Positions 1-24,821 of a stretch of DNA of 32,028 bases are shown piece by piece. Source of the stretch: a virus (Duplodnaviria > Heunggongvirae > Uroviricota > Caudoviricetes); the IMG/VR virus record IMGVR_UViG_2534681701_000015; one strand, given 5' to 3'. A program made the translations under genes and the position numbers. Positions within the stretch are counted from its first letter, which is position 1. Every line of letters starts with the position of its first letter. The notes below the pieces were generated by a model. The model did no database searches and was not told the DNA's origin. It saw only the letters and a list, made by a program, of their open reading frames with translations.

Positions 1-1224
1 ATGGCGTTGTCTGATGCGTGGTTGCGTTCAGTCATTGGAAAGGAACGTGATAAGGTTTTGGTTAAATCCGATCGTGATGGTTTGTCTGTCAGAGTATCAC
101 CGAAAGGTCGCGTAGTGTTCCAATATCGTTATCAATGGGCAGGGAAAGGCGAGCGCCTTGATATCGGTACTTACCCGGCAACTGGATTAAAAGAGGCCAG
201 AGAAGAAGTTATCCGTCTTCGTGGTGAACTCGAGTCAAACCGCAATCCACGATTGGTCAAGCAGGTAGAAAAACGCAAAGCTACTGAAGCCATGACGGTG
301 GAGTCTGTGATCCGTGCCTGGTATGCAGCATATTGTGTAAAAAATAAAAAAGGTTCTGAGCAGATACTCCGCTCATTTGAACTGCACCTGTTCTCTAAAA
401 TCGGGAGTATCCCTCACGATGTAGCTACTTTGCATGATTGGTTAGAGGTCCTGGAGCCTCTTAGCACTAAGACTCCAGCAATAGCAGACCGATTGCTAAT
501 TAACGCAAAGCAGGCCCATGTCTGGGCGTATAAGAGAAAGCTCATTGAAACTCGCCCGCTGTCGGATATCACGGGTAAAGATATGGATATCCGTAAAGGT
601 CAGAAGAAACGGTTTCTGACACATGATGAAATTAAAATCCTTTATGCTGCGATCGATGGTTCTCGAATGGTTCCTAAATACCGGGCCTTCATTAAACTAT
701 TGCTGCATTTTGGTTGCCGTAGTTCAGAGCTAATTACTGCCCGGGTGGACGATTTTGATTTCATTAATAAAGTATGGACTGTACCACCAGAACGACATAA
801 GACTGGGGAGATAACAGGCGAACCGCTAAAGCGACCCATTATTGAACCGGTTGAAGAGCTTATAAAGTACGCTATCTCTATGAACAATGGTTCCGATATG
901 CTTTTTACTAAGGAAGGAAGCAGGGAACCCGTTGGTCGGACATCATTGCAGTCGCTGCCTTACAATTTAATGCAGTACGCATGGCGGCGTTTGGGGTATC
1001 AATTCCCTCATTGGTCTCTTCATGATTTGAGACGAACAGCACGAACAAACTTTTCTGATCTTACTGAGCCTCATATTGCAGAAATAATGCTAGGTCATAA
1101 ACTGCCAGGGGTATGGCAAGTTTATGATAAGAGCGATTATCTAGAAGAACAGCGTAAAGCCTACCAGGCATGGTGGGAGAGAGTTAAATCGATTGTTACT
1201 TGTACTAACTCATGCTCCAATTGA
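1..1224 (+). CDS. int: Tyrosine recombinase / phage integrase, P4-type, complete (ATG at window position 1)
   Basis: 407-aa ORF; N-terminus MALSDAWLRS...VRVSPKGRVVFQYRYQ resembles the arm-binding domain of P4/CP4-57 family integrases; C-terminal HDLRRT and downstream Tyr region fit the catalytic domain. Confidence 0.9.
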   Translation: MALSDAWLRSVIGKERDKVLVKSDRDGLSVRVSPKGRVVFQYRYQWAGKGERLDIGTYPATGLKEAREEVIRLRGELESNRNPRLVKQVEKRKATEAMTVESVIRAWYAAYCVKNKKGSEQILRSFELHLFSKIGSIPHDVATLHDWLEVLEPLSTKTPAIADRLLINAKQAHVWAYKRKLIETRPLSDITGKDMDIRKGQKKRFLTHDEIKILYAAIDGSRMVPKYRAFIKLLLHFGCRSSELITARVDDFDFINKVWTVPPERHKTGEITGEPLKRPIIEPVEELIKYAISMNNGSDMLFTKEGSREPVGRTSLQSLPYNLMQYAWRRLGYQFPHWSLHDLRRTARTNFSDLTEPHIAEIMLGHKLPGVWQVYDKSDYLEEQRKAYQAWWERVKSIVTCTNSCSN

Positions 1225-4968: not shown

Positions 4969-7414
<2,446 letters not shown>

Positions 7415-7471
7415 TCACTTAAATAAGTGATAGTCTTAATACTAGTTTTTAGACTAGTCATTGGAGAACAG

Positions 7472-7837
7472 ATGATTGATGTCTTAGGGCCGGAGAAACG
7501 CAGACGGCGTACCACACAGGAAAAGATCGCAATTGTTCAGCAGAGCTTTGAACCGGGGATGACGGTCTCCCTCGTTGCCCGGCAACATGGTGTAGCAGCC
7601 AGCCAGTTATTTCTCTGGCGTAAGCAATACCAGGAAGGAAGTCTTACTGCTGTCGCCGCCGGAGAACAGGTTGTTCCTGCCTCTGAACTTGCTGCCGCCA
7701 TGAAGCAGATTAAAGAACTCCAGCGCCTGCTCGGCAAGAAAACGATGGAAAATGAACTCCTCAAAGAAGCCGTTGAATATGGACGGGCAAAAAAGTGGAT
7801 AGCGCACGCGCCCTTATTGCCCGGGGATGGGGAGTAA
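7472..7837 (+). CDS. insC: IS2 OrfA (InsC), HTH protein
   Basis: [41 protein letters not shown]...; A6G slippery run at 7789-7795. Confidence 0.9.
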
Positions 7838-8700
7838 GCTTAGTCAGCCGTTGTCTCCGGGTGTCGCGTGCGCAGTTGCACGTCATTCTCAGACGAACCG
7901 ATGACTGGATGGATGGCCGCCGCAGTCGTCACACTGATGATACGGATGTGCTTCTCCGTATACACCATGTTATCGGAGAGCTGCCCACGTATGGTTATCG
8001 TCGGGTATGGGCGCTGCTTCGCAGACAGGCAGAACTTGATGGTATGCCTGCGATCAATGCCAAACGTGTTTACCGGATCATGCGCCAGAATGCGCTGTTG
8101 CTTGAGCGAAAACCTGCTGTACCGCCATCGAAACGGGCACATACAGGCAGAGTGGCCGTGAAAGAAAGCAATCAGCGATGGTGCTCTGACGGGTTCGAGT
8201 TCTGCTGTGATAACGGAGAGAGACTGCGTGTCACGTTCGCGCTGGACTGCTGTGATCGTGAGGCACTGCACTGGGCGGTCACTACCGGCGGCTTCAACAG
8301 TGAAACAGTACAGGACGTCATGCTGGGAGCGGTGGAACGCCGCTTCGGCAACGATCTTCCGTCGTCTCCAGTGGAGTGGCTGACGGATAATGGTTCATGC
8401 TACCGGGCTAATGAAACACGCCAGTTCGCCCGGATGTTGGGACTTGAACCGAAGAACACGGCGGTGCGGAGTCCGGAGAGTAACGGAATAGCAGAGAGCT
8501 TCGTGAAAACGATAAAGCGTGACTACATCAGTATCATGCCCAAACCAGACGGGTTAACGGCAGCAAAGAACCTTGCAGAGGCGTTCGAGCATTATAACGA
8601 ATGGCATCCGCATAGTGCGCTGGGTTATCGCTCGCCACGGGAATATCTGCGGCAGCGGGCTTGTAATGGGTTAAGTGATAACAGATGTCTGGAAATATAG
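7795..8700 (+). CDS. insD: IS2 OrfB (InsD), transposase catalytic domain, made as an OrfAB fusion by -1 frameshift
   Basis: 301-aa ORF with DDE integrase-like core, overlapping the end of insC in the -1 frame. Confidence 0.9.
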
Positions 8701-9202
8701 GGGCAAATCCACCAGTCTTCAATCCATTCTGCCAGTGACTTCTGGGAGTTACGCTCACCGTTAACAGACAACAGAGCAGAGAACGGTGCTGTCTTTTTCA
8801 GTTTGAGAGTGGCGGTGTTATCTGCGTGACCTGGTTCATCAATAGTACCCAGATTAAGCACACTGACGGCACGCATATTATCAGCATCGATAAAGCAGCG
8901 GGTGCCTTCATCTGCAAGATCTTTAGAATAACGGGTAAAGTCATCGATGCTGGCAGTGGAAAGCGCACCACGGAAACGTAAGCGATTTAAATTAAATTTT
9001 TCCAGATCATGAATGCGGAAATTCTCGGGCAATGCCACAGCATCGGCACCAATCTTACTGATAATTTCATTAACACCCTGAGCAGAAATAAGGGCATGGA
9101 TTTGATTAATTGCGGTTGCGTCTAAGTTCTGAGACATAATAAGTCCTCACTATATAAAGATATTCAGTGATGAGATAAATAATCAGTTAATTAAGAACGA
9201 TA

Positions 9203-9565
9203 TTAATGACCTGCTGCGCGGAGTTTTCCGTCAGGTTCACCGGCAAGAGTCAGTAATTGTCCCTGGTCTTCCTGCAGAATAGTCAGGCGACCACCGCGAT
9301 TGACATACATCGGCGTTTCGGTGGTGTCTTCTTCGGAAATTTTCCCGCGGTTAGTCGGGCGGACATATGAGAGTTTATGTTTGATTTTCACACGGCTCTC
9401 ATCAAACGGTTCGATTTCCAGGTTGAGTGAGACCTTACCTTTGGTTTTCGTGTTCATCACACCGGAAGCGACTTCACTGAGAACTGCGCCGATTTTGGTT
9501 TCAAATACGCCGCCGTCCAGCTCCCCGATAAATGCCTGTACATCAGTACTGCGTTCGCTAGCCAT
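9203..9565 (-). CDS. Hypothetical early-left phage protein (120 aa)
   Basis: ATG at 9565 preceded by AGGAG 7 nt upstream; the longer ORF called to 9751 lacks an SD and runs into the leader. Confidence 0.55.
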   Translation of the reverse strand: MASERSTDVQAFIGELDGGVFETKIGAVLSEVASGVMNTKTKGKVSLNLEIEPFDESRVKIKHKLSYVRPTNRGKISEEDTTETPMYVNRGGRLTILQEDQGQLLTLAGEPDGKLRAAGH

Positions 9566-9700
9566 TTTGCTGCTCCTCATCATATCGACCCTGCAAGGTC
9601 GGTTGGTTTCTCCACAAAACAGAGAAGAACACCTGCGGTGGCAGCCGCCCGGATGGATTGGGTTATGAGCCCGTCGTCCGGTGATGCTCTTCTCTGTTTT

Positions 9701-9748
9701 GTAAAAAGAGCGGTACCAGCCGGAAGCAAGTGTACAAACTGGTACCGC
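9701..9748 (-). terminator. Intrinsic terminator in the early-left leader
   Basis: Perfect 10-bp inverted repeat GCGGTACCAG (9710-9719) / CTGGTACCGC (9739-9748), 19-nt loop; on the minus strand it is followed by TCTTTTTAC. Confidence 0.45.
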
Positions 9749-10193
9749 CAAAGCAGTGGCTGTTGTGGTGACCGGTGCTGATCTCCGGCTTGCGGTTATT
9801 TCAGACTCTCACGGGCGTTTAATTGCCCCGCCGAACAGCTCTTTTCCGCAATAGCTGCAATGTCTTTCGCGCATCAGCCTGCGCATTCACCACAACGCTG
9901 AGAGCACTTAGCCAGTTACGGCACCACACTTTGTCGCGGTTCCATAAATGCCCTCATCGTTGCACCCTGGTCTCTTCCCAGGCGTCAAACCGAATCGCCA
10001 CGCTGGTTAGGCGTCTTATCAGCATCATCATTGACTTGCACATTCCGGCTACCTGGTTTGTTTGCTCGAGCAAGGAGTGGATTGTCCCCTTTAACGTCAC
10101 CAGACCGCTAACGACGCATGTGCCATACGCCGTATTACAACCAAATTTTGTTAGTACCTTGTTTGTTGGTCTGGAAAGAAAGATAAAATGAAG

Positions 10194-10231
10194 TTGCGCA
10201 TTATGCAAGTGTTTTATTGCGAGATGTGCAA
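10194..10231. promoter_or_regulatory. Putative OL operators / PL region
   Basis: Two 15-bp sites TTGC-N7-GCAA (10194-10208 TTGCGCATTATGCAA; 10217-10231 TTGCGAGATGTGCAA), same half-site pattern as the cI-cro intergenic region. Confidence 0.4.
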
Positions 10232-10240
10232 TTTTATGGG

Positions 10241-10266
10241 AAATGAAAAGCCACCTTTGGGTGGCT
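10241..10266 (-). terminator. Intrinsic terminator downstream of cI
   Basis: Hairpin GCCACC-TTTG-GGTGGC (10250-10265); on the minus strand it is followed by TTTCATTT; 20 nt after the cI stop. Confidence 0.5.
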
Positions 10267-10286
10267 AATTGATGAGGAGGTAAGGG

Positions 10287-10979
10287 TTAATTGTGTCGCT
10301 TAAGGGTTTGTGACTGGCTGATTAAGACCTTTCCAAAGACCATAAACCGGTGTTCATTTTCGCTGGTAATTCCCCATTCACGGTAAATCTGGTTATCAGA
10401 AATCACCAGTAGTTTGTCAGGTATCATTTGCAGTCGTTTGACATAAATTTTATCATCAAAACCAAATACATAGATACCATCTCCATCAAACTGATTGATA
10501 CTGACATCAACGAAGATGAGATCTCCTGGCTCAATGGTTGGACACATACTGTCCCCACGAACGTTGATAACTTTAATGTGATTGGCTGGTCGTCCGCCAA
10601 ACATCGATACAGCATTATCAGTTCTGTATTCAATGGCATGAATCACATCAATGACATCACCGCCCTGGATAAGGCCATTTCCCGCACTGGCACTGACATC
10701 CAGCATTTCAATACGGAATACATCCTTCACCTGCGCAACATCCTCACTAATACTGTTTTTACATACAGTATTACTTTTGAAGTCTGAGGTAAAGAGATCA
10801 GCAATATCAACACCTAAACTCCTGGCAATATTACTCAGGGCTTGTTCAGTGAATTGTTTCTGCTTACCTGTTTCCAGGCGCGAGATATTCGCCGCATCCA
10901 CTCCTATTGCTTCAGCGAGATCGGCGATTTTCATGTTCTTCGCCTGGCGAAGTTGTCTGACTCGATTTCCTATGTTCAT
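10287..10979 (-). CDS. cI: CI-type prophage repressor (XRE HTH + S24 LexA-like autopeptidase)
   Basis: 230 aa; N-terminal HTH (KIADLAEAIGVDAANISRLETGK), Ala-Gly cleavage site (SASAGNG), catalytic Ser in GDSM and Lys in VKRL. Confidence 0.9.
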   Translation of the reverse strand: MNIGNRVRQLRQAKNMKIADLAEAIGVDAANISRLETGKQKQFTEQALSNIARSLGVDIADLFTSDFKSNTVCKNSISEDVAQVKDVFRIEMLDVSASAGNGLIQGGDVIDVIHAIEYRTDNAVSMFGGRPANHIKVINVRGDSMCPTIEPGDLIFVDVSINQFDGDGIYVFGFDDKIYVKRLQMIPDKLLVISDNQIYREWGITSENEHRFMVFGKVLISQSQTLKRHN

Positions 10980-12476: not shown

Positions 12477-13022
12477 ATGGCTACGATCCCAACCCTCACT
12501 CAACCTGAAATTGCCATCGTTGATGGTCAGGCTGTTACTTCATCCCTGGCTGTTGCCAACTTCTTCTCCAAACGTCATGACGATGTACTGAAAAAGATCC
12601 GCACGCTTGAATGCTCCGCATCATTCACTGCCCGCAATTTTTCGGTGAGTGATTACACCGATTGCACAGGCCGCAAACTACCTTGCTATCAAATAACCCG
12701 CGACGGCTTTGCGTTTCTTGCTATGGGTTTCACGGGTAAACGTGCTGCCCAGTTCAAAGAGGCATACATCAATGCCTTTAACCAGATGGAGAAACAGCTT
12801 TCAAGGCCCGCTGTACCGAGCGACGTTGCACATAACGCCAGCGTTCTCTGTTCCTACATTTCATCAATTCATCAGGTCTGGCTGCAGCAGCTTTATCCTA
12901 TGTTGGCAAAAGCCGAATCTCCGCTGGCTGTTAGCTTATATGACTATATTAATGATGCTTCGGCGCTGGCCTGCCTCATAAATTTGTCGCTGAACCCTTC
13001 AGAGGTAAGGGGGCGCAAATGA
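12477..13022 (+). CDS. rha: Rha-family phage regulatory protein
   Basis: ATG 12477 with SD AGAGG 8 nt upstream; N-terminus PTLTQPEIAIVDGQAVTSSLAVANFFSKRHDDVLKKIRTL...YQITRDGFAFLAMGFTGKRAAQFKEAYINAF fits the Rha family; the 383-aa ORF called from 11871 is read-through. Confidence 0.8.
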   Translation: MATIPTLTQPEIAIVDGQAVTSSLAVANFFSKRHDDVLKKIRTLECSASFTARNFSVSDYTDCTGRKLPCYQITRDGFAFLAMGFTGKRAAQFKEAYINAFNQMEKQLSRPAVPSDVAHNASVLCSYISSIHQVWLQQLYPMLAKAESPLAVSLYDYINDASALACLINLSLNPSEVRGRK

Positions 13023-13243
13023 TCCGGAATATTTTCAAACGTTTTACCAATCAGACTTTCCGTTGTCCTCGTCCGGGTCAGTGGTACACCACGCCTGCAG
13101 GGCATGTTCTACGTGTTAGCCTGGTTGACCGTGAATGTCAGAAGGTGGTTTGTGAACCGCTGGGCCGTAATTACCGCGTCAGTATGCCGCTTATAGCCTT
13201 TCGCTCCAGAAAAAACATGAAGCATCTCGGAGGTGCAGCATGA
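13019..13243 (+). CDS. Small Cys-containing hypothetical protein (74 aa)
   Basis: ATGA overlaps with both neighbours (Rha stop, O-like start); contains C-x24-C-x4-C. Confidence 0.45.
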   Translation: MIRNIFKRFTNQTFRCPRPGQWYTTPAGHVLRVSLVDRECQKVVCEPLGRNYRVSMPLIAFRSRKNMKHLGGAA

Positions 13244-14058
13244 GTATGGAGCTGATGGTTAAAGCGATGAAAATTCGAGTGGGTAATCCATTGCGAAAAC
13301 TGGTTCTGATCAAGCTGGCTGATAATGCCAGCGATCAGGGTGAGTGCTGGCCCAGCTACCAGCATATTGCTGACCAGTGCGAGATTAGCAAACGTTCTGT
13401 GATGAATCATATTGCGGCCCTTTGTGAGTCCGGGCTGGTAAAAAAAGTCACCCGGAAAGGTGAAAAAGGTAACTCAAGTAATATCTATCTCCTTCATCTG
13501 GATGGTGCAGGAGATTCACTAGGGGGTAGTGCAAATAATTCACTATCTGGTGCAGCAAATTCACCAGGTAGTGCAGGAGTTGCACCAGGGGGTAGTGCAG
13601 GAGATTCACCCAGAACCAGTCACTCTTTTGAACCAGTCAAAGAACCAGTCAATGAACCAATAGCTGTTGGTGCATCAGTTGATGAGTCCGTGCGAGTTCG
13701 TTCAAACCGACCGGAATATTCTCCGGAGTTTGAGCAGGCATGGCTGGCATATCCCAAACGTGCTGGTGGCAATTCAAAATCTGCAGCCTTCAAAGCCTGG
13801 AAAGCCCGTTTGAATGAGGGGGTAAACCCCGAAACCATGCTGGAAGGTGTGAAACGCTATGCGGGCTGGGTATCTGCAATGGGTAACAGCGGCACACAAT
13901 TTGTGAAACAGGCTGTCACGTTCTTTGGTCCGGATCGTCATTTCGAAGAATCCTGGGAAGTTCCTGCGGTATCTGCAGCCAGACGTGAGGACCCGTACTT
14001 CAAATCCAGTTACGACAACGTGGACTACAGCCAGATCCCGGCAGGATTCAGGGGGTGA
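13240..14058 (+). CDS. Replication initiator, lambda-O-like organisation (N-terminal winged HTH, low-complexity linker encoded by iterons, C-terminal domain)
   Basis: 272 aa; SD GGAGG 6 nt before the ATG; the linker GAGDSLGGSANNSLSGAANSPGSAGVAPGGSAGDSP is encoded by direct DNA repeats. Confidence 0.6.
   Translation: MSMELMVKAMKIRVGNPLRKLVLIKLADNASDQGECWPSYQHIADQCEISKRSVMNHIAALCESGLVKKVTRKGEKGNSSNIYLLHLDGAGDSLGGSANNSLSGAANSPGSAGVAPGGSAGDSPRTSHSFEPVKEPVNEPIAVGASVDESVRVRSNRPEYSPEFEQAWLAYPKRAGGNSKSAAFKAWKARLNEGVNPETMLEGVKRYAGWVSAMGNSGTQFVKQAVTFFGPDRHFEESWEVPAVSAARREDPYFKSSYDNVDYSQIPAGFRG
13504..13651. repeat. Iteron-like direct repeats inside the initiator gene: candidate replication origin
   Basis: Five imperfect ~20-bp repeats (core GT(A)GTGCAG..ATTCACC) at 13504-13610, then three perfect GAACCAGTCA copies at 13613, 13630 and 13642. 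Confidence 0.55.
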
Positions 14059-14060
14059 TC

Positions 14061-14549
14061 ATGAGTCTTTTGAATGACGTTCAGAAATTCATTGAAGCCC
14101 ATCCGGGGTGTACTTCCGGAGACATTGCGGATGCTTTTGCAGGTTACTCACGGCAGCGCGTACTGCAGTCAGCAAGCAAGTTACGTCAGAGTGGGCGTGT
14201 GGCTCACCGTTGTGAAGGGGATACACGCAGACATTTCCCGCGCCTGACTGAGAGAGCGCAGGAGCCGGAACCACAACCAGTTCGTGAAACCAGACCTGTG
14301 CGCAATTTCTATGTCGGCACTAACGATCCCCGGGTGATTTTGTGCCTGACCCGCCAGGCTGAAGAACTGGAGTCAAGAGGCTTATACCGTCGTGCTGCAA
14401 CCGTGTGGATGGCGGCATTCCGTGAAAGCCACTCCCAGCCAGAACGAAACAATTTTCTGGCGCGTCGTGAGCGGTGCTTACGGAAAAGCAGCAAGCGCGC
14501 TGCATCGGGTGAAGAGTGGTATCTGTCAGGGAATTACGTGGGGGCTTAA
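14061..14549 (+). CDS. Hypothetical regulator: N-terminal winged-helix-like region plus C-terminal PerC/Pch-like motif
   Basis: AEELESRGLYRRAATVWMAAF resembles the conserved helix of PerC/Pch regulators; GTG at 14055 is an alternative start. Confidence 0.4.
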   Translation: MSLLNDVQKFIEAHPGCTSGDIADAFAGYSRQRVLQSASKLRQSGRVAHRCEGDTRRHFPRLTERAQEPEPQPVRETRPVRNFYVGTNDPRVILCLTRQAEELESRGLYRRAATVWMAAFRESHSQPERNNFLARRERCLRKSSKRAASGEEWYLSGNYVGA

Positions 14550-15202
14550 TGAGTAATAAATATTGCCAGGCGCTGGTGGAACTGCGGAACAAACCAGCCC
14601 ATGAACTGAAGGACGTGGGCGATCAGTGGCGCACGCCGGACAACATTTTCTGGGGAATTAACACCCTGTTTGGCCCGTTTGTTCTGGATCTGTTCACTGA
14701 CGGTGATAACGCCAAATGTGCTGCGTATTACACGGCGGAAGACAACGCGCTGGCGCATGACTGGTCAGAACGTCTTGCGGAGCTTAAAGGTGCTGCCTTT
14801 GGTAATCCCCCATACAGCCGCGCCAGTCAGCATGAGGGGCAATACATCACCGGCATGCGTTACATCATGAAGCATGCCAGTGCCATGCGTGATAAGGGCG
14901 GGCGCTATGTTTTCCTGATCAAAGCTGCCACCAGCGAAGTTTGGTGGCCGGAAGATGCAGACCATATTGCTTTTATTCGCGGGCGTATTGGTTTTGAACT
15001 GCCTGCCTGGTTTATCCCGAAGGATGAGAAGCAGGTGCCGACAGGAGCGTTCTTCGCTGGTGCTATTGCTGTTTTCGACAAGACCTGGAAGGGACCGGCA
15101 ATCAGCTACATCGGGCGCGATGAACTTGAGGCATGTGGTGAGGCCTTTCTGGCGCAGGTTCGCCAGCAGGCGGAAAAACTGGTCAGGGAGATGGCGGCAT
15201 GA
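14549..15202 (+). CDS. Phage DNA N6-adenine methyltransferase (Dam-like)
   Basis: NPPY catalytic motif (GNPPYS); SD GGGGG before ATG 14549. Confidence 0.8.
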   Translation: MSNKYCQALVELRNKPAHELKDVGDQWRTPDNIFWGINTLFGPFVLDLFTDGDNAKCAAYYTAEDNALAHDWSERLAELKGAAFGNPPYSRASQHEGQYITGMRYIMKHASAMRDKGGRYVFLIKAATSEVWWPEDADHIAFIRGRIGFELPAWFIPKDEKQVPTGAFFAGAIAVFDKTWKGPAISYIGRDELEACGEAFLAQVRQQAEKLVREMAA

Positions 15203-15525
15203 CGACGTTAACTCAATGCCAGCAGCAGGTGCTGGATATGCTGATTTCTTACCAGAAAGAACGTGGCTTCCCGCCAACCAATCAGGAGGTGGCAACCATG
15301 CTGGGATACCGTTCAGTGAATGCAGCGGTGGAGCATCTTCGCGCACTGGAGAAAAAAGGCGTCATCACGATAAAGCGTGGCGTGGCCCGGGGGATCACGC
15401 TTCATACCGCAGTGAAGGACGACGACAGCGAAGCGGTCGGGATTATCCGCTCACTGCTTGCCGGTGAGGAAAACGCAAGGCTGCGTGCAACCCACTGGTT
15501 ACATGAGAGGGGCCTGAAAGCATGA
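15199..15525 (+). CDS. LexA DNA-binding-domain homologue lacking the S24 peptidase domain
   Basis: LTQCQQQVLDMLISYQKERGFPPTNQEVATMLGYRSVNAAVEHLRALEKKGVITIKRGVARGITL aligns by eye with the LexA N-terminal winged helix; 108 aa, no Ser/Lys dyad. Confidence 0.7.
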   Translation: MTTLTQCQQQVLDMLISYQKERGFPPTNQEVATMLGYRSVNAAVEHLRALEKKGVITIKRGVARGITLHTAVKDDDSEAVGIIRSLLAGEENARLRATHWLHERGLKA

Positions 15526-15911
15526 AGCTGATCCTGCCTTTTCCGCCCAGCGTGAACACGTACTGGCGACACCCCAACAAAGGGGTGTTTGCAGGTAAGA
15601 GCCTGATAAGCGCGGCGGGGCGCAAATTCCAGAGCGCGGCGTGCGCAGCAATAGTTGAGCAGTTACGTCGTCTACCAAAACCAACGTCGGCACCTGCTTC
15701 AGTGGAGATCGTGTTGTTTCCTCCGGATAACCGGATCCGCGATCTGGACAACTATAACAAGGCGCTGTTTGACGCGTTGACCCACGCGGGTGTGTGGGAA
15801 GACGACAGACAGGTGAAAAGAATGCTGGTGGAGTGGGGACCGGTTATCCCGAAAGGGAAGGTCGAGATCACCATCAGTAAGTACGAGAAAACGGCGGGTG
15901 CAGCCGCCTGA
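15522..15911 (+). CDS. rusA: Holliday junction resolvase RusA
   Basis: MKLILPFPPSVNTYW...IRDLDNYNKALFDALTHAGVWEDDRQV, typical RusA. Confidence 0.9.
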   Translation: MKLILPFPPSVNTYWRHPNKGVFAGKSLISAAGRKFQSAACAAIVEQLRRLPKPTSAPASVEIVLFPPDNRIRDLDNYNKALFDALTHAGVWEDDRQVKRMLVEWGPVIPKGKVEITISKYEKTAGAAA

Positions 15912-15930
15912 TCAAGAGGAGAAACGAAGT

Positions 15931-16728
15931 ATGAATAATCTGATGGTCATTGATGGTATTGAAGTTCGTCGTGATGCTTATGGTCGTTACAGCCTGAACG
16001 ATCTGCACAGGGCTGCCGGTTCTCTGGATAAGCATAAGCCTGCATTCTGGCTCCGCAATGAGCAAACTGAACGTTTAATAAGCGAGTTGCAGATTTGCAA
16101 CTCGGTCAATATAGAGCCAGTTAACGTTATTCGTGGCGGAAATAACCAGGGGACGTATGTCTGCAAAGAACTGGTGTATGCCTATGCAATGTGGATAAGC
16201 CCGTCATTCCATCTGAAGGTGATCCGTACTTTCGACATGGTAACCAGCGCACCGGAAAAATTATCCGGACAGGCTGCTGACAAGATGCAGGCTGGTGTGA
16301 TTCTGCTGGACTTTATGCGCCGGGAATTAAACCTGTCTAACTCTTCAGTGCTTGGGGCCTGTCAGAAACTCCAGGAGGCTGTTGGCTTACCGAATCTGGC
16401 ACCGCGCTATGCCATTGATGCTCCTGCTGACGCGCCTGATGGCTCAAGCCGCCCCACGCTGTCACTGAGTGCACTGCTGAAGCAGTATGGTATCCGCCTG
16501 ACAGCTAATCAGGCATATCACCAGATGGCGAAGCTGGGGATCGTTGAACAACGTGAACGATACAGCCGCACTGCGATTAACAACATCAAAAAATTCTGGT
16601 CGCTGACGGCGAAAGGCTGCATGTTCGGCAAGAACATCACCAGTCCCGCAAATCCGCGCGAGACGCAGCCGCATTTCTTCGAATCCCGGTTCCCTGAGCT
16701 GTTAAAGCTGCTCGATACCGTTCATTGA
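15931..16728 (+). CDS. KilA-N domain protein (antirepressor-like)
   Basis: ATG 15931 with SD GAGGAG; N-terminus MNNLMVIDGIEVRRDAYGRYSLNDLHRAAG...KPAFWLRNEQTERLI. Confidence 0.6.
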   Translation: MNNLMVIDGIEVRRDAYGRYSLNDLHRAAGSLDKHKPAFWLRNEQTERLISELQICNSVNIEPVNVIRGGNNQGTYVCKELVYAYAMWISPSFHLKVIRTFDMVTSAPEKLSGQAADKMQAGVILLDFMRRELNLSNSSVLGACQKLQEAVGLPNLAPRYAIDAPADAPDGSSRPTLSLSALLKQYGIRLTANQAYHQMAKLGIVEQRERYSRTAINNIKKFWSLTAKGCMFGKNITSPANPRETQPHFFESRFPELLKLLDTVH

Positions 16729-16729
16729 G

Positions 16730-17725
16730 GTGACCGTGAGAGCGCTACTGACCCCTGAAATTGCCCCGCGTATGGGGATCGTATTGTTCAGGCCAGGTTC
16801 AGAGCTGATGCCCCTGTTTATGCAGGGGCGTGTCCTGCTGGAGCCTGAGCCGGAACGTTATTCATCTTTCGCCAGTGGTGCCGTTCCGGCTGCATCACAA
16901 CCGCTGGCGGATGATCCTGCCGTTTGGGCCGTGTTCCGCAATGAGGCAGTGATTCGTCGTGCTGGTGGAGTGGAATGTCTTGAACGCTGGTTACTTCGTG
17001 AAAAAGGTTGCCAGTGGCCTCATTCCGACTGGCACAGCGAGAACATGACCACAATGCGACACACGCCGGGCGCAATCCGTCTGTGCTGGCACTGCGATAA
17101 CCAGCTGCGCGATCAGTTCACGGAACGGCTGGAATCAATGGCAACGGATAACTGTACCCGCTGGGTGTTGTCTGTTGTGCGTCGGGATCTCGGTTTTGAT
17201 GACAGTCACGTTGTGACAATGCCGGAACTGTGCTGGTGGCTGATTCGTAATGACCTGGCGGATGCCTTACCGGAAAGTGCAGCCCGTAAGGCACTGAGAT
17301 TACCGAAGCCTGTTGTGCCGTCTGTCACCCGGGAAAGTGACCTTGTGCCTTCGGTTCCTGCCACCAGCATCATCCAGGATAAAGCGAAAAAGGTGCTGGC
17401 GCTGAAAGTGGATCCGGAGTCGCCGGAGTCTTTTATGTTACGCCCAAAACGTCGCCGCTGGGTTAATGAAAAGTACACGCGCTGGGTTAAGACACAGCCG
17501 TGTGCATGTTGTGGAAAGCCTGCTGATGATCCCCACCACCTGATAGGTCACGGTCAGGGAGGAATGGGAACAAAAGCGCATGACCTTTTTGTGTTGCCTT
17601 TGTGCAGAAAGCATCACGACGAGCTGCATGCGGATACCGTGGCATTTGAAGAGAAGTATGGCTCCCAGCTGGAGCTGATATTTCGTTTTATCGATCGTGC
17701 GCTGGCAATTGGCGTGCTGGCCTGA
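16730..17725 (+). CDS. DUF968-family protein with C-terminal HNH-like zinc-binding motif
   Basis: C-terminus [43 protein letters not shown]. Confidence 0.6.
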
Positions 17726-17742
17726 TTTTGTGGAGAAAGTTG

Positions 17743-18108
17743 ATGCGTGATATTCAAATGGTTCTTGAACGTTGGGGGGCATGGGTGGCAAATAATCACG
17801 AGGATGTCACCTGGTCGTCTATTGCTGCAGGATTTAAAGGACTAATCCCTTCAAAAGTAAAATCCCGCCCGCAATGTTGTGACGATGACGCGATGATCAT
17901 TTGTGGGTGCATGGCTCGCCTGAAAAAGAACAACAGCGATTTGCACGATTTATTAGTGGATTATTATGTAGGTGGTATGACGTTTATGGCGCTTGCCCGT
18001 AAACATGGGCGTTCTGATTGCTGGGTTGGGCGTTTATTGCAAAAGGCTGAAGGTGTAGTTGATGGCATGTTAATGATGTTAGAAATTGAGCTAGAGATGG
18101 ATCGTTAG
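17743..18108 (+). CDS. Q: Late-gene antiterminator Q
   Basis: ATG 17743 with SD GGAGA; [25 protein letters not shown]... with a Cys cluster; last gene before the lysis region. Confidence 0.8.
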
Positions 18109-18191
18109 AAGACCTCTTATTGAGGGGGTAATTGAATCAGTTTAATGTGTGGGGAGTCGATTTATTCTCCCCATTTATTTAATTAATTTAC

Positions 18192-18638
18192 TTAAGGTTT
18201 TAATTCATCAAGACGTTGTTGGATAGTGTTTTTGCTTGCGTTGTCTGTTATAGCCATTTGTTGTACTTGCCCCATTGCCATTTGAGTTTCCATCCACATA
18301 TCGGCCCACACTTTTGTATCGTTATTAACTTGAGCGATAGTAAATCTGACTTTTGATACCGGGGTTGTTGAATAGGCATTTCCGATTAACATTTGTCCAA
18401 AAACAGCAGAGCCGCCTTCCAGTTCTTTACCACATATAACACTGCTGTTATCCGCGTTGTAAATTATCAACCCTCTACTATTGCAGTAATTCACAAGGGC
18501 ATCTTTGACTTTATCTTTTGTCGTATTTTGATAAACCCCCTCAGGTTTTCCTGATTGAGTTTTCTTTATCAATGGTACGGAAGAAGTACAACCTGAAATG
18601 ATAGTTGCGCTAAGTAATAGTACAGTCATTTTATTCAT
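18192..18638 (-). CDS. Lipoprotein moron (148 aa) encoded antisense between Q and the tRNA cluster
   Basis: Signal peptide plus lipobox MNKMTVLLLSATIISGC; visibly AT-rich; hairpin GGGGAG..CTCCCC at 18151-18172 just beyond its stop. Confidence 0.7.
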   Translation of the reverse strand: MNKMTVLLLSATIISGCTSSVPLIKKTQSGKPEGVYQNTTKDKVKDALVNYCNSRGLIIYNADNSSVICGKELEGGSAVFGQMLIGNAYSTTPVSKVRFTIAQVNNDTKVWADMWMETQMAMGQVQQMAITDNASKNTIQQRLDELKP

Positions 18639-18767
18639 GTTTCTTATCCATTGTTAAGGGTATACCCACACAATTATTTTTATTGGAGATGAATAATCAA
18701 CCGTTTACAATCGTAAAAAATCAAATATGCTGTTAAGAGTGGTTACTTCGCCACACAACTTAAACCC

Positions 18768-18906: not shown

Positions 18907-18982
18907 GGCCCTTTAGCTCAGTGGTGAGAGCGAGCGACTCATAATCGCCAGGTCGCTGGTTCAAATCCAGCAAGGGCCACCA
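18907..18982 (+). tRNA. tRNA with CAU anticodon (ileX/ileZ-like tRNA-Ile2 or Met)
   Basis: Cloverleaf folded by hand: acceptor GGCCCTT/AAGGGCC, D-arm GCTCAGTGGTGAGAGC, anticodon loop CTCATAA, T-loop TTCAAAT, 3' ACCA. Confidence 0.8.
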
Positions 18983-18983
18983 A

Positions 18984-19060
18984 CTGCCACTAGCTCATCA
19001 GGAAAGAGCGTCAACCCTTTAAGTTGAGAGTGCGAGGTTCGAGTCCCCGGTGGCGGTCCA
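18984..19060 (+). tRNA. tRNA-like gene, identity uncertain (anticodon loop CCTTTAA; UUU/Lys if canonical, but C at position 33)
   Basis: Acceptor CTGCCAC/GTGGCGG (one G-U), D-arm GCTC..GAGC, anticodon stem TCAAC/GTTGA, T-arm CGAGG-TTCGAGT-CCCCG (one mismatch), 3' TCCA. Confidence 0.5.
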
Positions 19061-19062
19061 GT

Positions 19063-19138
<76 letters not shown>

Positions 19139-19141
19139 TGT

Positions 19142-19216
<75 letters not shown>

Positions 19217-22719: not shown

Positions 22720-24821
22720 TGCTGAATCAGGAAACCGCAAAGGCAGCACGAACCGATTCAGGTTATATCCTTCGCGCACCGAGACGAATGCGGGTTGCTG
22801 ATGCCGTTGCTCAGTATATGCGAGTGCCCATGGGGGCCGGGAACTCAGTCCCGTGGGATCCGCTGGTGGCACCGTATGTTCTTGAGCCGATGAACTGCCT
22901 GGCCTCGCGTGAATACGACGCAGTGATATTTGTTGGTCCGGCACGAACCGGCAAGACTATCGGCCTGATTGACGGCTGGGTGATTTACAACGTGATTTGC
23001 GATCCTGCGGATATGCTGATCATTCAGATGACGGAGGAAAAAGCCCGCGAACACTCCAAAAAACGACTTGCCAGAACGTTTCGCGTCAGCCCGGAAGTGG
23101 TCAGTCGCCTGAGTCCGAACAAAAATGACAACAACGTTTATGACAGAACATTCCTTGCTGGCAACTACCTGAAAATCGGCTGGCCGTCAGTCAATATCAT
23201 GTCCTCATCAGATTATAAATGCGTGGCGCTGACGGATTATGACCGTTTTCCGGAAGATATTGATGGCGAGGGGGATGCCTTCTCTCTTGCCTCAAAACGT
23301 ACCACCACATTTATGTCCAGTGGTATGACGCTGGTGGAGAGTTCCCCCGGCAGGGATGTGAAGGATGTGAAATGGCGACGGACTTCACCGCATGAGGCTC
23401 CACCAACCACGGGGATACTGTCGCTCTATAACCGTGGCGATCGCCGTCGCTGGTACTGGCCCTGTCCACACTGTGGTGAGTATTTTCAGCCCTGCGGCGA
23501 TGTGGTTGCTGGTTTCCGTGATATTGCCGATCCCGTGCTGGCAAGTGAGGCGGCTTATATTCAGTGTCCTTCCTGTTCAGGACGGATTATGCCTGAACAA
23601 AAACGTGAGCTGAACGGACGTGGGGTCTGGTTGCGGGATGGTGAATCCATCAATGCGGATGGCAGTCGTTATGGTGATCCCCGACGCTCACGTATTGCGT
23701 CATTCTGGATGGAGGGTCCGGCAGCTGCTTACCAGACACTCTCGCAACTCGTTTACAAACTGCTTACTGCAGAACAGGAATACGAGACAACCGGAAGTGA
23801 AGAAACACTCAAGACGGTTATCAATACCGACTGGGGATTACCTTATCTTCCCCGTGCCAGCATGGAGCAACGAAAAAGTGAACTGCTTGAGCAGCGGGCA
23901 GAGCCAGTTCCTTCCCGCAGTGTGCCGGATGGCGTTAATTTCCTGGTGGCGACAGTTGATGTGCAGGCGGGACGTCATCGCCGTTTTGTGGTTCAGGTAA
24001 CGGGCTATGGCAGCCGTGGCGAACGCTGGATTATTGATCGTTACAACATCACGCAGTCATTGCGCGGTGACAGCGACGGGGAGAGCCAGCGAATTGATCC
24101 GGCCAGCTATCCGGAAGACTGGGATGTCCTGCTGACGGATGTTTTTCATAAAAGCTGGCCGCTGGCCTCCGATCCTTCTCAACAAATGCGACTGATGGCA
24201 ATGGCGGTGGACTCCGGCGGTGAAGACGGGGTCACCGATAATGCCTATAAATTCTGGCGTCGTTGCCGTCGTGATGGCCTTGGTAAACGTATTTACCTGT
24301 TTAAGGGCGACAGCATCCGGCGCGCAAAACTGATCACCCGTACATTCCCTGATAACACCGGACGAACGGGCCGACGGGCGCAGGCCGCAGGTGATGTGCC
24401 GCTCTGGCTTCTTCAGACGGATGCCCTGAAAGACCGGGTGAATAACGCGTTATGGCGTGACTCGCCAGGTCCCGGCTATGTGCATTTCCCTGACTGGCTG
24501 GGGAGCTGGTTTTACGACGAACTGACGTATGAAGAGCGGAGTAGTGACGGGAAATGGAGTAAGCCGGGTCGCGGTGCCAACGAAGCTTTTGACCTGATGG
24601 TGTATGCCGAGGCTCTGGTCATTCTGCATGGATACGAAAAGATCCGCTGGCCGGATGCACCGGAGTGGGCGAGCCGGGAAACCTGGCTGGAGTGTGTCCC
24701 GGACAGTACCGAACCGTCACCCTCACCGGAACCGGTATCCACGCCTGTTAAAAAACAAAAACGGAAGAAAACAGTAACTGACGATGTTAACCCCTGGCTG
24801 ACTTCCGGAGGATGGTTATGA
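22719..24821 (+). CDS. Terminase large subunit (lambda gpA family)
   Basis: 700 aa; Walker A FVGPARTGKT; ATGA overlap with terS. Confidence 0.9.
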   Translation: MLNQETAKAARTDSGYILRAPRRMRVADAVAQYMRVPMGAGNSVPWDPLVAPYVLEPMNCLASREYDAVIFVGPARTGKTIGLIDGWVIYNVICDPADMLIIQMTEEKAREHSKKRLARTFRVSPEVVSRLSPNKNDNNVYDRTFLAGNYLKIGWPSVNIMSSSDYKCVALTDYDRFPEDIDGEGDAFSLASKRTTTFMSSGMTLVESSPGRDVKDVKWRRTSPHEAPPTTGILSLYNRGDRRRWYWPCPHCGEYFQPCGDVVAGFRDIADPVLASEAAYIQCPSCSGRIMPEQKRELNGRGVWLRDGESINADGSRYGDPRRSRIASFWMEGPAAAYQTLSQLVYKLLTAEQEYETTGSEETLKTVINTDWGLPYLPRASMEQRKSELLEQRAEPVPSRSVPDGVNFLVATVDVQAGRHRRFVVQVTGYGSRGERWIIDRYNITQSLRGDSDGESQRIDPASYPEDWDVLLTDVFHKSWPLASDPSQQMRLMAMAVDSGGEDGVTDNAYKFWRRCRRDGLGKRIYLFKGDSIRRAKLITRTFPDNTGRTGRRAQAAGDVPLWLLQTDALKDRVNNALWRDSPGPGYVHFPDWLGSWFYDELTYEERSSDGKWSKPGRGANEAFDLMVYAEALVILHGYEKIRWPDAPEWASRETWLECVPDSTEPSPSPEPVSTPVKKQKRKKTVTDDVNPWLTSGGWL

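Follow-up and report, generated by a model that had tools for sequence, protein, structure and literature searches.

The closest studied analogue of the protein described here, and the characterized precedent for a LexA homologue without a Peptidase_S24 (S24) domain in a temperate phage, is gp6 of GIL01, a tectivirus of Bacillus thuringiensis (Fornelos et al., 2018; PMC6182141). Truncated and with no autocleavage domain, this LexA homologue binds GaCACAnnTGTGaC, a palindrome unlike the host LexA box, at late promoter P3 and activates transcription (PMC6182141). Our subject is a gene for a 108-amino-acid LexA-family protein (hereafter the LexA-DBD gene, for its DNA-binding domain [DBD]) in IMG/VR record IMGVR_UViG_2534681701_000015, a 32,028-nt stretch of DNA (the window) that is a lambdoid prophage. 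As with gp6, the LexA winged-helix domain is here encoded by an early gene of a temperate phage and comes without the autocleavage domain. However, gp6, which we compare by its published description, is of Bacillus LexA origin (44% identity) and has no more than a 14-residue extension, which forms the wing, whereas the 108-residue protein is nearest to enterobacterial LexA (50% identity), keeps most of the SOS-box contacts and carries an extra two-helix tail. Unlike GIL01, moreover, the lambdoid phages that encode it already have a cleavable CI-type repressor and a Q antiterminator. What sets the enterobacterial family apart from gp6 is thus where it seems to come from, its conserved two-helix tail and its phage context. 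Since a tblastn search of 50,697 phage records (E up to 1e-3) returned enterobacterial, Edwardsiella, Hafnia and uncultured phages, with no Bacillus phage among the matches listed, gp6 and this family are probably independent captures.

Other proteins of mobile elements offer looser comparisons. Anti-SOS proteins such as the DinI homologues of phages and plasmids and plasmid PsiB act on RecA filaments. The outcome proposed here, a damped host SOS response, would be the same, but the 108-residue protein would act at the operator and has no sequence relationship to either; a dinI homologue lies directly 5′ of Klebsiella relatives of the gene, and another is present in phage mEp460. Lambda NinH, a small Fis-like DNA-binding protein of the nin region, is also a copy of the DNA-binding portion of a global regulator of its host, but this is an analogy only, with a different host regulator, a different fold and a different family. 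Another comparison is the fragment of E. coli LexA containing residues 1-84, which has the same fold and ~50% identity, shares the S-x-N-A-A-x-E-H-L motif of the recognition helix and the R-G-I motif of the wing with the phage protein and, like it, is a DNA-binding domain that RecA* no longer controls. Unlike LexA, the 108-residue protein has no S24 domain, Ser119, Lys156 or conserved Ala-Gly and ends in a different C-terminal module. In addition, the LexA fragment is rapidly removed by ClpXP (work cited in a passage of PMC10055390), whereas the phage protein is the product of a dedicated, conserved gene.

A LexA winged helix joined to a two-helix tail

The LexA-DBD gene (Table 1) has AGGGAG 8 nt 5′ of its ATG and encodes a protein identical to RefSeq WP_000210169.1, a "LexA family transcriptional regulator." An initial annotation of the window, made from its letters and open reading frames (ORFs), had aligned the first ~65 residues by eye with the LexA N-terminal winged helix and proposed a hidden Markov model search with LexA_DNA_bind. 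That search matches the whole of Pfam PF01726 (residues 1-65 on model positions 1-65 of 65; E 2.9e-19, 69 bits, with a cut-off of 23.7 bits), and no other family in a Pfam scan of the protein scores above its own cut-off. A phmmer search of PDB sequences retrieves 1lea, the N-terminal domain of E. coli LexA (E 6.9e-16), and LexA at full length (~1.6e-15), and the protein's identity to E. coli LexA is ~50% over residues 2-69. An AlphaFold2 model (mean predicted local distance difference test [pLDDT] 84.4), for which 42 family members with identity down to 38% served as input, has three helices (6-22, 28-35 and 40-52) and a two-stranded wing (56-58 and 66-68). The best Foldseek matches of this model are LexA structures 3jso, 3jsp, 1jhh and 1lea (root-mean-square deviation 1.0-1.3 Å over 67-70 residues); DNA-bound LexA N-terminal domain 3jso superposes at 1.0 Å over 68 residues with 50% identity. 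The match to a LexA-type domain is far beyond chance, and the alignment made by eye was correct. Since orthologues at 40-50% identity share its length, domain order and neighborhood, the LexA-DBD gene is real. The phage-encoded ORF picked out in the initial annotation lies in a gene cassette of a lambdoid prophage.

In LexA, the Peptidase_S24 domain with its Ser-Lys dyad also makes the dimer interface. The 108-residue protein gives no match to this family (PF00717) at E up to 1, and its chain stops at residue 108; the neighboring cI-like protein, a positive control, does score for PF00717. Catalytic Ser119 and Lys156 of LexA have no counterpart, and the NCBIfam lexA equivalog TIGR00498 is matched over model positions 1-91 of 203 only, at 70.8 bits, under its cut-off of 110.95. 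The missing protease domain had been noticed at the outset, together with its corollary that RecA* could not trigger cleavage; both hold, as a protein without S24 is insensitive to RecA*-triggered self-cleavage of the LexA kind.

What the initial annotation overlooked is that the remaining ~35 residues are a conserved C-terminal module of their own, so that the protein is more than a truncated LexA; it also passed over the wide annotation that the family already has. The two tail helices (Table 1) are predicted with pLDDT near 88, and the tail is kept in relatives down to 38-50% identity. Among the 42 members, positions 79/82/83/86/87 and 93/97/100/101 are always hydrophobic and A97 is invariant. 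Foldseek finds no counterpart of the tail in LexA structures. The hydrophobic stripes and predicted helices would fit a replacement oligomerization module. The tail is thus best seen as a putative interaction module that stands in for the lost one, with dimerization as the obvious candidate, although it may instead bind a partner.

The alignment of the protein to LexA can be extended into this tail. HMMER places A88-G89-E90 on LexA A84-G85-E86, with the alignment reaching residue 90, and TIGR00498 is aligned through model position 91. These alignments would allow a very different role, in which "LLAGE" mimics the Ala84-Gly85 region of LexA, engages RecA*, ClpXP or (in trans) the catalytic domain of LexA and in this way modulates cleavage of LexA or CI. 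We rejected a retained cleavage site because the extension gains nothing in score (60.0 bits for residues 2-90 versus 61.6 bits for residues 2-69), because Gly89 is present in only 19/42 members, with N, R, E or D elsewhere, and because the segment around A88-G89 is predicted to be helical rather than strand or loop. The same observations count against a decoy role through a pseudo cleavage site, which is largely excluded and in our estimate very improbable.

Putative DNA contacts and proposed repression at SOS boxes

LexA contacts DNA through S39, N41, A42, E44 and E45 (Knegtel, 1995, as cited in a passage of PMC13416735), and N41 meets the operator base adjoining CAG via a water molecule (PMC5999292). 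Four of these five residues (S39, N41, A42 and E45) are kept in the 108-residue protein, in which Val replaces LexA E44 and, outside the recognition helix, Asn replaces LexA R28; the helix reading used to compare contacts is RSVNAAVEHLRAL, against RSPNAAEEHLKAL in LexA. Conservation within the family is strongest at S39 and N41 and at wing residues R64, G65 and I66, all invariant in 42/42 members, while A42 is found in 31/42. The E. coli clade, to which the window's protein belongs, is the one nearest LexA.

The best single explanation, to which we give a probability of roughly 0.4, is that the protein is a RecA*-insensitive repressor of the SOS-box type. By this account, a lambdoid prophage would have taken up an enterobacterial LexA, keeping the winged helix-turn-helix almost intact and exchanging the S24 autoprotease and dimerization domain for a helical hairpin of ~35 residues. 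The protein would be made from the rightward early operon, coupled to Dam and RusA, after inactivation of the CI-like repressor or upon infection. As a dimer held together by the tail, it would bind CTGT-type, SOS-box-like operators and, being uncleavable, would close LexA-controlled promoters again during the destruction of host LexA. The repressed promoters would be those of the SOS regulon of the host, along with any SOS boxes that the phage carries, and the outcome would be an SOS response that is damped or ended during lytic growth. Tail-mediated dimerization, binding to SOS-type boxes and repression as the outcome are all inferred steps. A passage in PMC10055390 relates that E. coli clears the N-terminal fragment of LexA through ClpXP "to prevent residual repression," and a stable LexA consisting of the DBD only could therefore in principle repress. 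Besides the portability of the cassette (see below), what puts this explanation ahead is the recognition helix close to that of LexA, the loss of the protease domain, the linkage to dinI and an SOS box in Klebsiella and this clearance of the LexA fragment.

The initial annotation had already proposed that the protein occupies SOS boxes and modulates the SOS response or prophage induction. The sequence evidence for this functional claim is mixed. On its side are the retention of S39, N41, A42, E45 and wing residues R64-G65 and the finding that some relatives adjoin a dinI gene that appears to be controlled by an SOS box, and we regard occupancy of SOS boxes as plausible.

SOS boxes are also present on many of the phages themselves. 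We scored sites with a matrix made from 25 E. coli boxes. The scores are indicative only; the top-scoring boxes are nonetheless unambiguous near-consensus sites. Strong boxes are found in 44/80 related loci, so sites are available on these phages, and this counts in favor of a repressor of the SOS-box type. The sole strong LexA-type site in the window, for which the best of 200 shuffles reached 19.5 bits, lies inside the cI-like gene (Table 1), and the same box or a one-base variant occurs in cI alleles 92.5-100% identical in 26/80 related loci. No convincing promoter was found around it. It is a candidate for a roadblock formed by LexA, for part of a promoter (internal or antisense) or for a site at which LexA controls expression of a C-terminal fragment. 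It is also possible that this box is a phage-borne target of the 108-residue protein, albeit not one that is obligatory for the family.

Several related phages have boxes in other places. A 22.2-bit box, TACTGTAAAAATAAACAGTG, is found within a Dam-like "DNA methylase" gene of the late region (orf48 in SfV), 8 nt past its annotated start. This gene sits between Q and holin. The box is present in 27/80 related loci and 28 phage records, which suggests either that the prophage methylase is LexA controlled or that its start codon is mis-annotated. Another box of 22 bits, TACTGTATTTATGAACAGTG, is located in a gap of ~150 nt between rusA and the KilA-N gene (L068, 10765-10784; also L029, L043, L070 and L082). 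In these five loci, whose KilA-N allele is 67% identical to the window's, the box adjoins a TTGATA-N17-TAAGTT promoter-like pair, and the KilA-N or antirepressor-type gene that follows the LexA-DBD/rusA pair looks as if it is LexA controlled via this site. In mEp460 (L002), tandem strong boxes (22.8 and 21.4 bits; 23255-23302) precede a DinI-like gene, and similar paired boxes are found in L004 at 49747 and 49775. Finally, the module at 9362-10393 of the Klebsiella loci L006-L009 contains a 26.7-bit box over a likely -10 element (TATACT) before a dinI homologue. Box and dinI lie ~600 bp 5′ of the LexA-DBD gene, with a small ORF between and all genes on the same strand, and we found no convincing terminator between the box and the LexA-DBD homologue. 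This linkage puts the homologue in an SOS-linked module, and the Klebsiella genes may form an SOS-inducible dinI/LexA-DBD operon, a two-part module for shutting off SOS.

A number of observations weigh against repression at SOS boxes. Nowhere in the family is there a Glu at position 44 or an Arg at position 28. Position 45 is E in 21/42 members, D in 8 and L in 7, and T also occurs; the Klebsiella homologue has L44/L45 in its recognition helix. As position 45 varies among Enterobacteriaceae hosts that share one SOS box, a single universal SOS-box specificity is disfavored, and the differences between subfamilies at this position suggest diverging specificities. No box of at least 17 bits was found in 36/80 loci, at least 10 of which have full 10-kb flanks, and none of the 4 Cronobacter loci has a strong box. 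Because the box-bearing modules lie no more than 5 kb from the gene, co-occurrence where it is seen could be explained by linkage. The dimerization domain of LexA is missing, and dimerization through the tail is putative. The only characterized phage LexA-DBD protein, gp6, binds a site that is not a LexA site and activates transcription. Full-text literature searches found no experimental characterization of this enterobacterial family.

Two candidate signals were set aside. Given the box-free loci and the linkage, an obligatory pairing of the gene with phage-borne SOS boxes is unsupported; it is possible that such boxes are targets but not a defining partner. An excess of weak sites (CTGT-N8-ACAG with at most one mismatch; 21 in the window versus 11 expected from shuffles) also fails as a signal. 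The N8 count resembles that of other spacings (mean 15.7), with z = 1.7 in the window and ~0 in other phages, and the excess is therefore compositional, a further point that does not help the case for SOS-box targets. Phage lambda has no strong SOS box.

Could the protein instead be a phage-specific factor like gp6? If so, a drifted LexA domain would switch a promoter of the phage itself (late, antirepressor or immunity) rather than act on the host SOS regulon. The precedent of gp6, which activates P3 via its own palindrome, speaks for this alternative, as do the family-wide replacement of E44 and R28, the variation of position 45 by subfamily and the location of the gene just upstream of a late regulator. 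PHROG 362, which the protein matches over nearly its full length (E 1.5e-59, 199.8 bits; residues 1-107 on profile positions 1-105 of 106), is also labeled "transcriptional repressor," although this is an annotation label and not an assayed function. However, the genes of the conserved cassette leave no DNA between them in which an operator could lie, and the modules that do bear promoters (immunity and the Q/late region) are not conserved alongside the gene. A search of 13000-18700 for inverted repeats returned nothing operator-like near the gene, and we therefore rejected a cis operator within the cassette. The recognition helix is also much nearer to that of host LexA than a redesigned specificity would predict. 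We consider a gp6-like role, the main rival of the SOS-box repressor, somewhat unlikely. If the protein does have its own operator, it would be the second independent case, after GIL01 gp6, of a LexA head reused as a private phage regulator. Returning to the SOS-box repressor, the joining of a gap-free cassette to many different promoter-bearing modules favors a factor that acts in trans, with host sites as targets, over one bound to a cis site of the phage that encodes it.

The conserved cassette and its distribution

The LexA-DBD gene is part of the rightward early operon. The ORFs from 13240 to 18108 abut or overlap, leaving the cassette without non-coding DNA, and a scan for promoters and terminators found no promoter-like or convincing terminator-like sites flanking the gene. 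The putative dam promoter noted by the depositors of SfV is weak and degenerate in the window. From its position in the operon, we would expect the gene to be expressed upon infection and otherwise only once the CI-like repressor has been inactivated.

For the E. coli clade, we compared 80 IMG/VR loci; the constant core of the cassette consists of genes for a PerC-like protein (75 loci), the LexA-DBD protein (80), RusA (80), KilA-N (78) and DUF968 (75), and Dam is present in 56. The KilA-N alleles are 67-100% identical among related loci. The cI, replication, Rha and Q modules vary; the cassette recombines with different immunity, replication and Q modules. In Cronobacter, the order is PerC-Dam-LexA_DBD-RusA-Rha/ANT-DUF968-antiterminator, with the same 4-nt overlaps although the LexA-DBD proteins are 49% identical. 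In Klebsiella, it is DinI-orf-LexA_DBD-orf-DUF968, followed by lysis genes, and both RusA and Dam are absent. DUF968 is the steadiest downstream neighbor, also in these Klebsiella and Cronobacter relatives.

Such constancy raises the possibility that the protein is an accessory to its neighbors, a DNA-targeting helper of the recombination and replication cassette whose tail binds a partner (RusA, the HNH-like DUF968 protein or Dam, for example) and which positions or modulates that partner on phage DNA. The ATGA overlaps with Dam and RusA at both borders in E. coli and Cronobacter, the presence of RusA as the next gene in 80/80 loci, the steadiness of DUF968 across genera and the lack of resemblance between the conserved tail and any known dimerization module are all consistent with such a role. 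Nevertheless, we judge it improbable, since Dam is missing from 24/80 loci and from phage Ayreon, RusA and Dam are both missing from the Klebsiella arrangement, and we know of no precedent for a LexA-type domain as a recombination or replication accessory.

The domain assignment itself is already public in the mEp460 record and in RefSeq, Pfam and PHROG labels. The mEp460 gene is annotated as "LexA DNA binding domain protein," the copies in E. coli as "LexA family transcriptional regulator" or "LexA family protein" and SfV orf42 as "unknown." Phage records with the gene number 50 by DNA and 63 by tblastn and include mEp460, SfV, SfII, SfIV, cdtI, Ayreon and Stx2a and Stx2c converting phages. 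At the DNA level, the gene is present at ≥95% identity in 2233/5426 complete E. coli genomes, or about four in ten. Profile searches extend the tail-bearing family to prophages of Cronobacter, Klebsiella, Salmonella, Citrobacter, Atlantibacter, Kosakonia and Hafnia. Relatives at 40-50% identity are found in Klebsiella, Cronobacter and Salmonella prophages, and the Klebsiella form, of 130 amino acids, has >1000 member sequences. As a separate observation, the S24-less proteins P0131, P0132, P0156 and P0159 (141-222 amino acids) contain two LexA_DNA_bind domains in tandem; they may be single-chain pseudo-dimers, another answer to the loss of the dimerization domain.

It is the prevalence of the gene, Stx phages included, that makes it of interest. 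Prophage induction, the release of Shiga toxin, mutagenesis and antibiotic tolerance are all under SOS control. If the protein is an uncleavable repressor acting at operators, then E. coli, Shigella, Klebsiella and related bacteria would have a layer of SOS control that has been overlooked, and co-resident prophages would have a means of competing with one another. In the most far-reaching version, ~40% of E. coli strains, including lysogens of Stx2 phages and of Shigella serotype-converting phages, would carry a RecA*-proof repressor that re-closes SOS boxes genome-wide upon prophage induction, shutting off host SOS functions such as sulA, SOS-induced toxins and error-prone polymerases and, in co-resident prophages, the LexA-controlled antirepressors and other SOS-box genes. 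The first phage to fire would then hold its rivals down and change the course of SOS-dependent mutagenesis and of toxin release. We regard this version as quite unlikely.

The surrounding prophage

Between the cI-like gene and the PerC-family gene that begins the cassette lie, in order, a CII/CP76-like gene, a gene for a Rha/Ash protein and a replication initiator (Table 1). Downstream of Q are four tRNA genes, followed by lysis and morphogenesis genes.

Table 1. Positions of the LexA-DBD gene, its parts, its neighbors and SOS boxes (window positions unless another phage is named)
Feature	Positions	Strand	Remarks
Integrase	1-1224		
cI-like repressor	10287-10979	-	Helix-turn-helix and S24
Near-consensus SOS box TACTGTTTTTACATACAGTA	10751-10770		Inside linker codons (NTVCKNS) of the cI-like gene; 24.8 bits
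PerC-family (YfdN-like) gene	14055-14549	+	Opens the conserved cassette
Phage N6-adenine DNA methyltransferase (Pfam Dam)	14516-15202	+	RefSeq start 33 nt further in
ATGA overlap, Dam stop/LexA-DBD start	15199-15202	+	Translational coupling
LexA-DBD gene, S24-less LexA-family protein, 108 amino acids	15199-15525	+	ATG start, TGA stop
LexA-type winged helix-turn-helix, residues 1-70	15199-15408	+	Pfam 1-65/65, AlphaFold2 model, Foldseek 3jso
Recognition helix, residues 40-52, VNAAVEHLRALEK (LexA, PNAAEEHLKALAR)	15316-15354	+	Family alignment
Beta-hairpin wing, residues 56-68, ITIKRGVARGITL	15364-15402	+	AlphaFold2 model, family alignment
Family-specific tail, residues 75-103	15421-15507	+	Two amphipathic helices (75-88, 93-103); AlphaFold2 model, family alignment
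ATGA overlap, LexA-DBD stop/rusA start	15522-15525	+	
RusA Holliday-junction resolvase	15522-15911	+	Directly 3′ of the LexA-DBD gene
KilA-N domain protein	15898-16728	+	PHROG 129 "transcriptional regulator"
DUF968/HNH-like protein	16730-17725	+	
Q-type late antiterminator	17728-18108	+	End of early operon
SOS box TACTGTAAAAATAAACAGTG in related phages	mEp460 (L002) 41021-41040; SfV (L003) 34170-34189; Ayreon (L005) 41489-41508; Stx2c (L004) 16751-16770		

Other features of the prophage were noted in passing. Membership of the locus in an anti-phage defense system was considered and rejected, as the PADLOC match is only marginal and partial. The PerC-family gene at 14055-14549 codes for a putative transcriptional activator and belongs with the prophage-encoded Pch/PerC regulators of pathogenic E. 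coli. Within the replication-initiator gene (13240-14058), tandem repeats of 21-24 nt and 12 nt at 13525-13659 are probably origin iterons, by analogy with lambda O. The tRNA cluster (18907-19216), 3′ of Q and 5′ of the lysis genes, comprises Met/CAT, Lys, Thr and Gly. In the near-identical prophage L001, RefSeq gives the first of these as tRNA-Ile, which would fit a modified CAT anticodon.

The prophage is probably defective. Its left arm is disrupted by insertion sequences at 5161-6962 and 6989-9137. In this arm, ORFs of 260 and 340 amino acids match, in size only, the IS100/IS21-type istB and istA annotated in L001, and an IS3-type transposase with an rve domain (7795-8700) interrupts a DUF2303 gene, whose two halves lie at 6989-7408 and 8625-9137.

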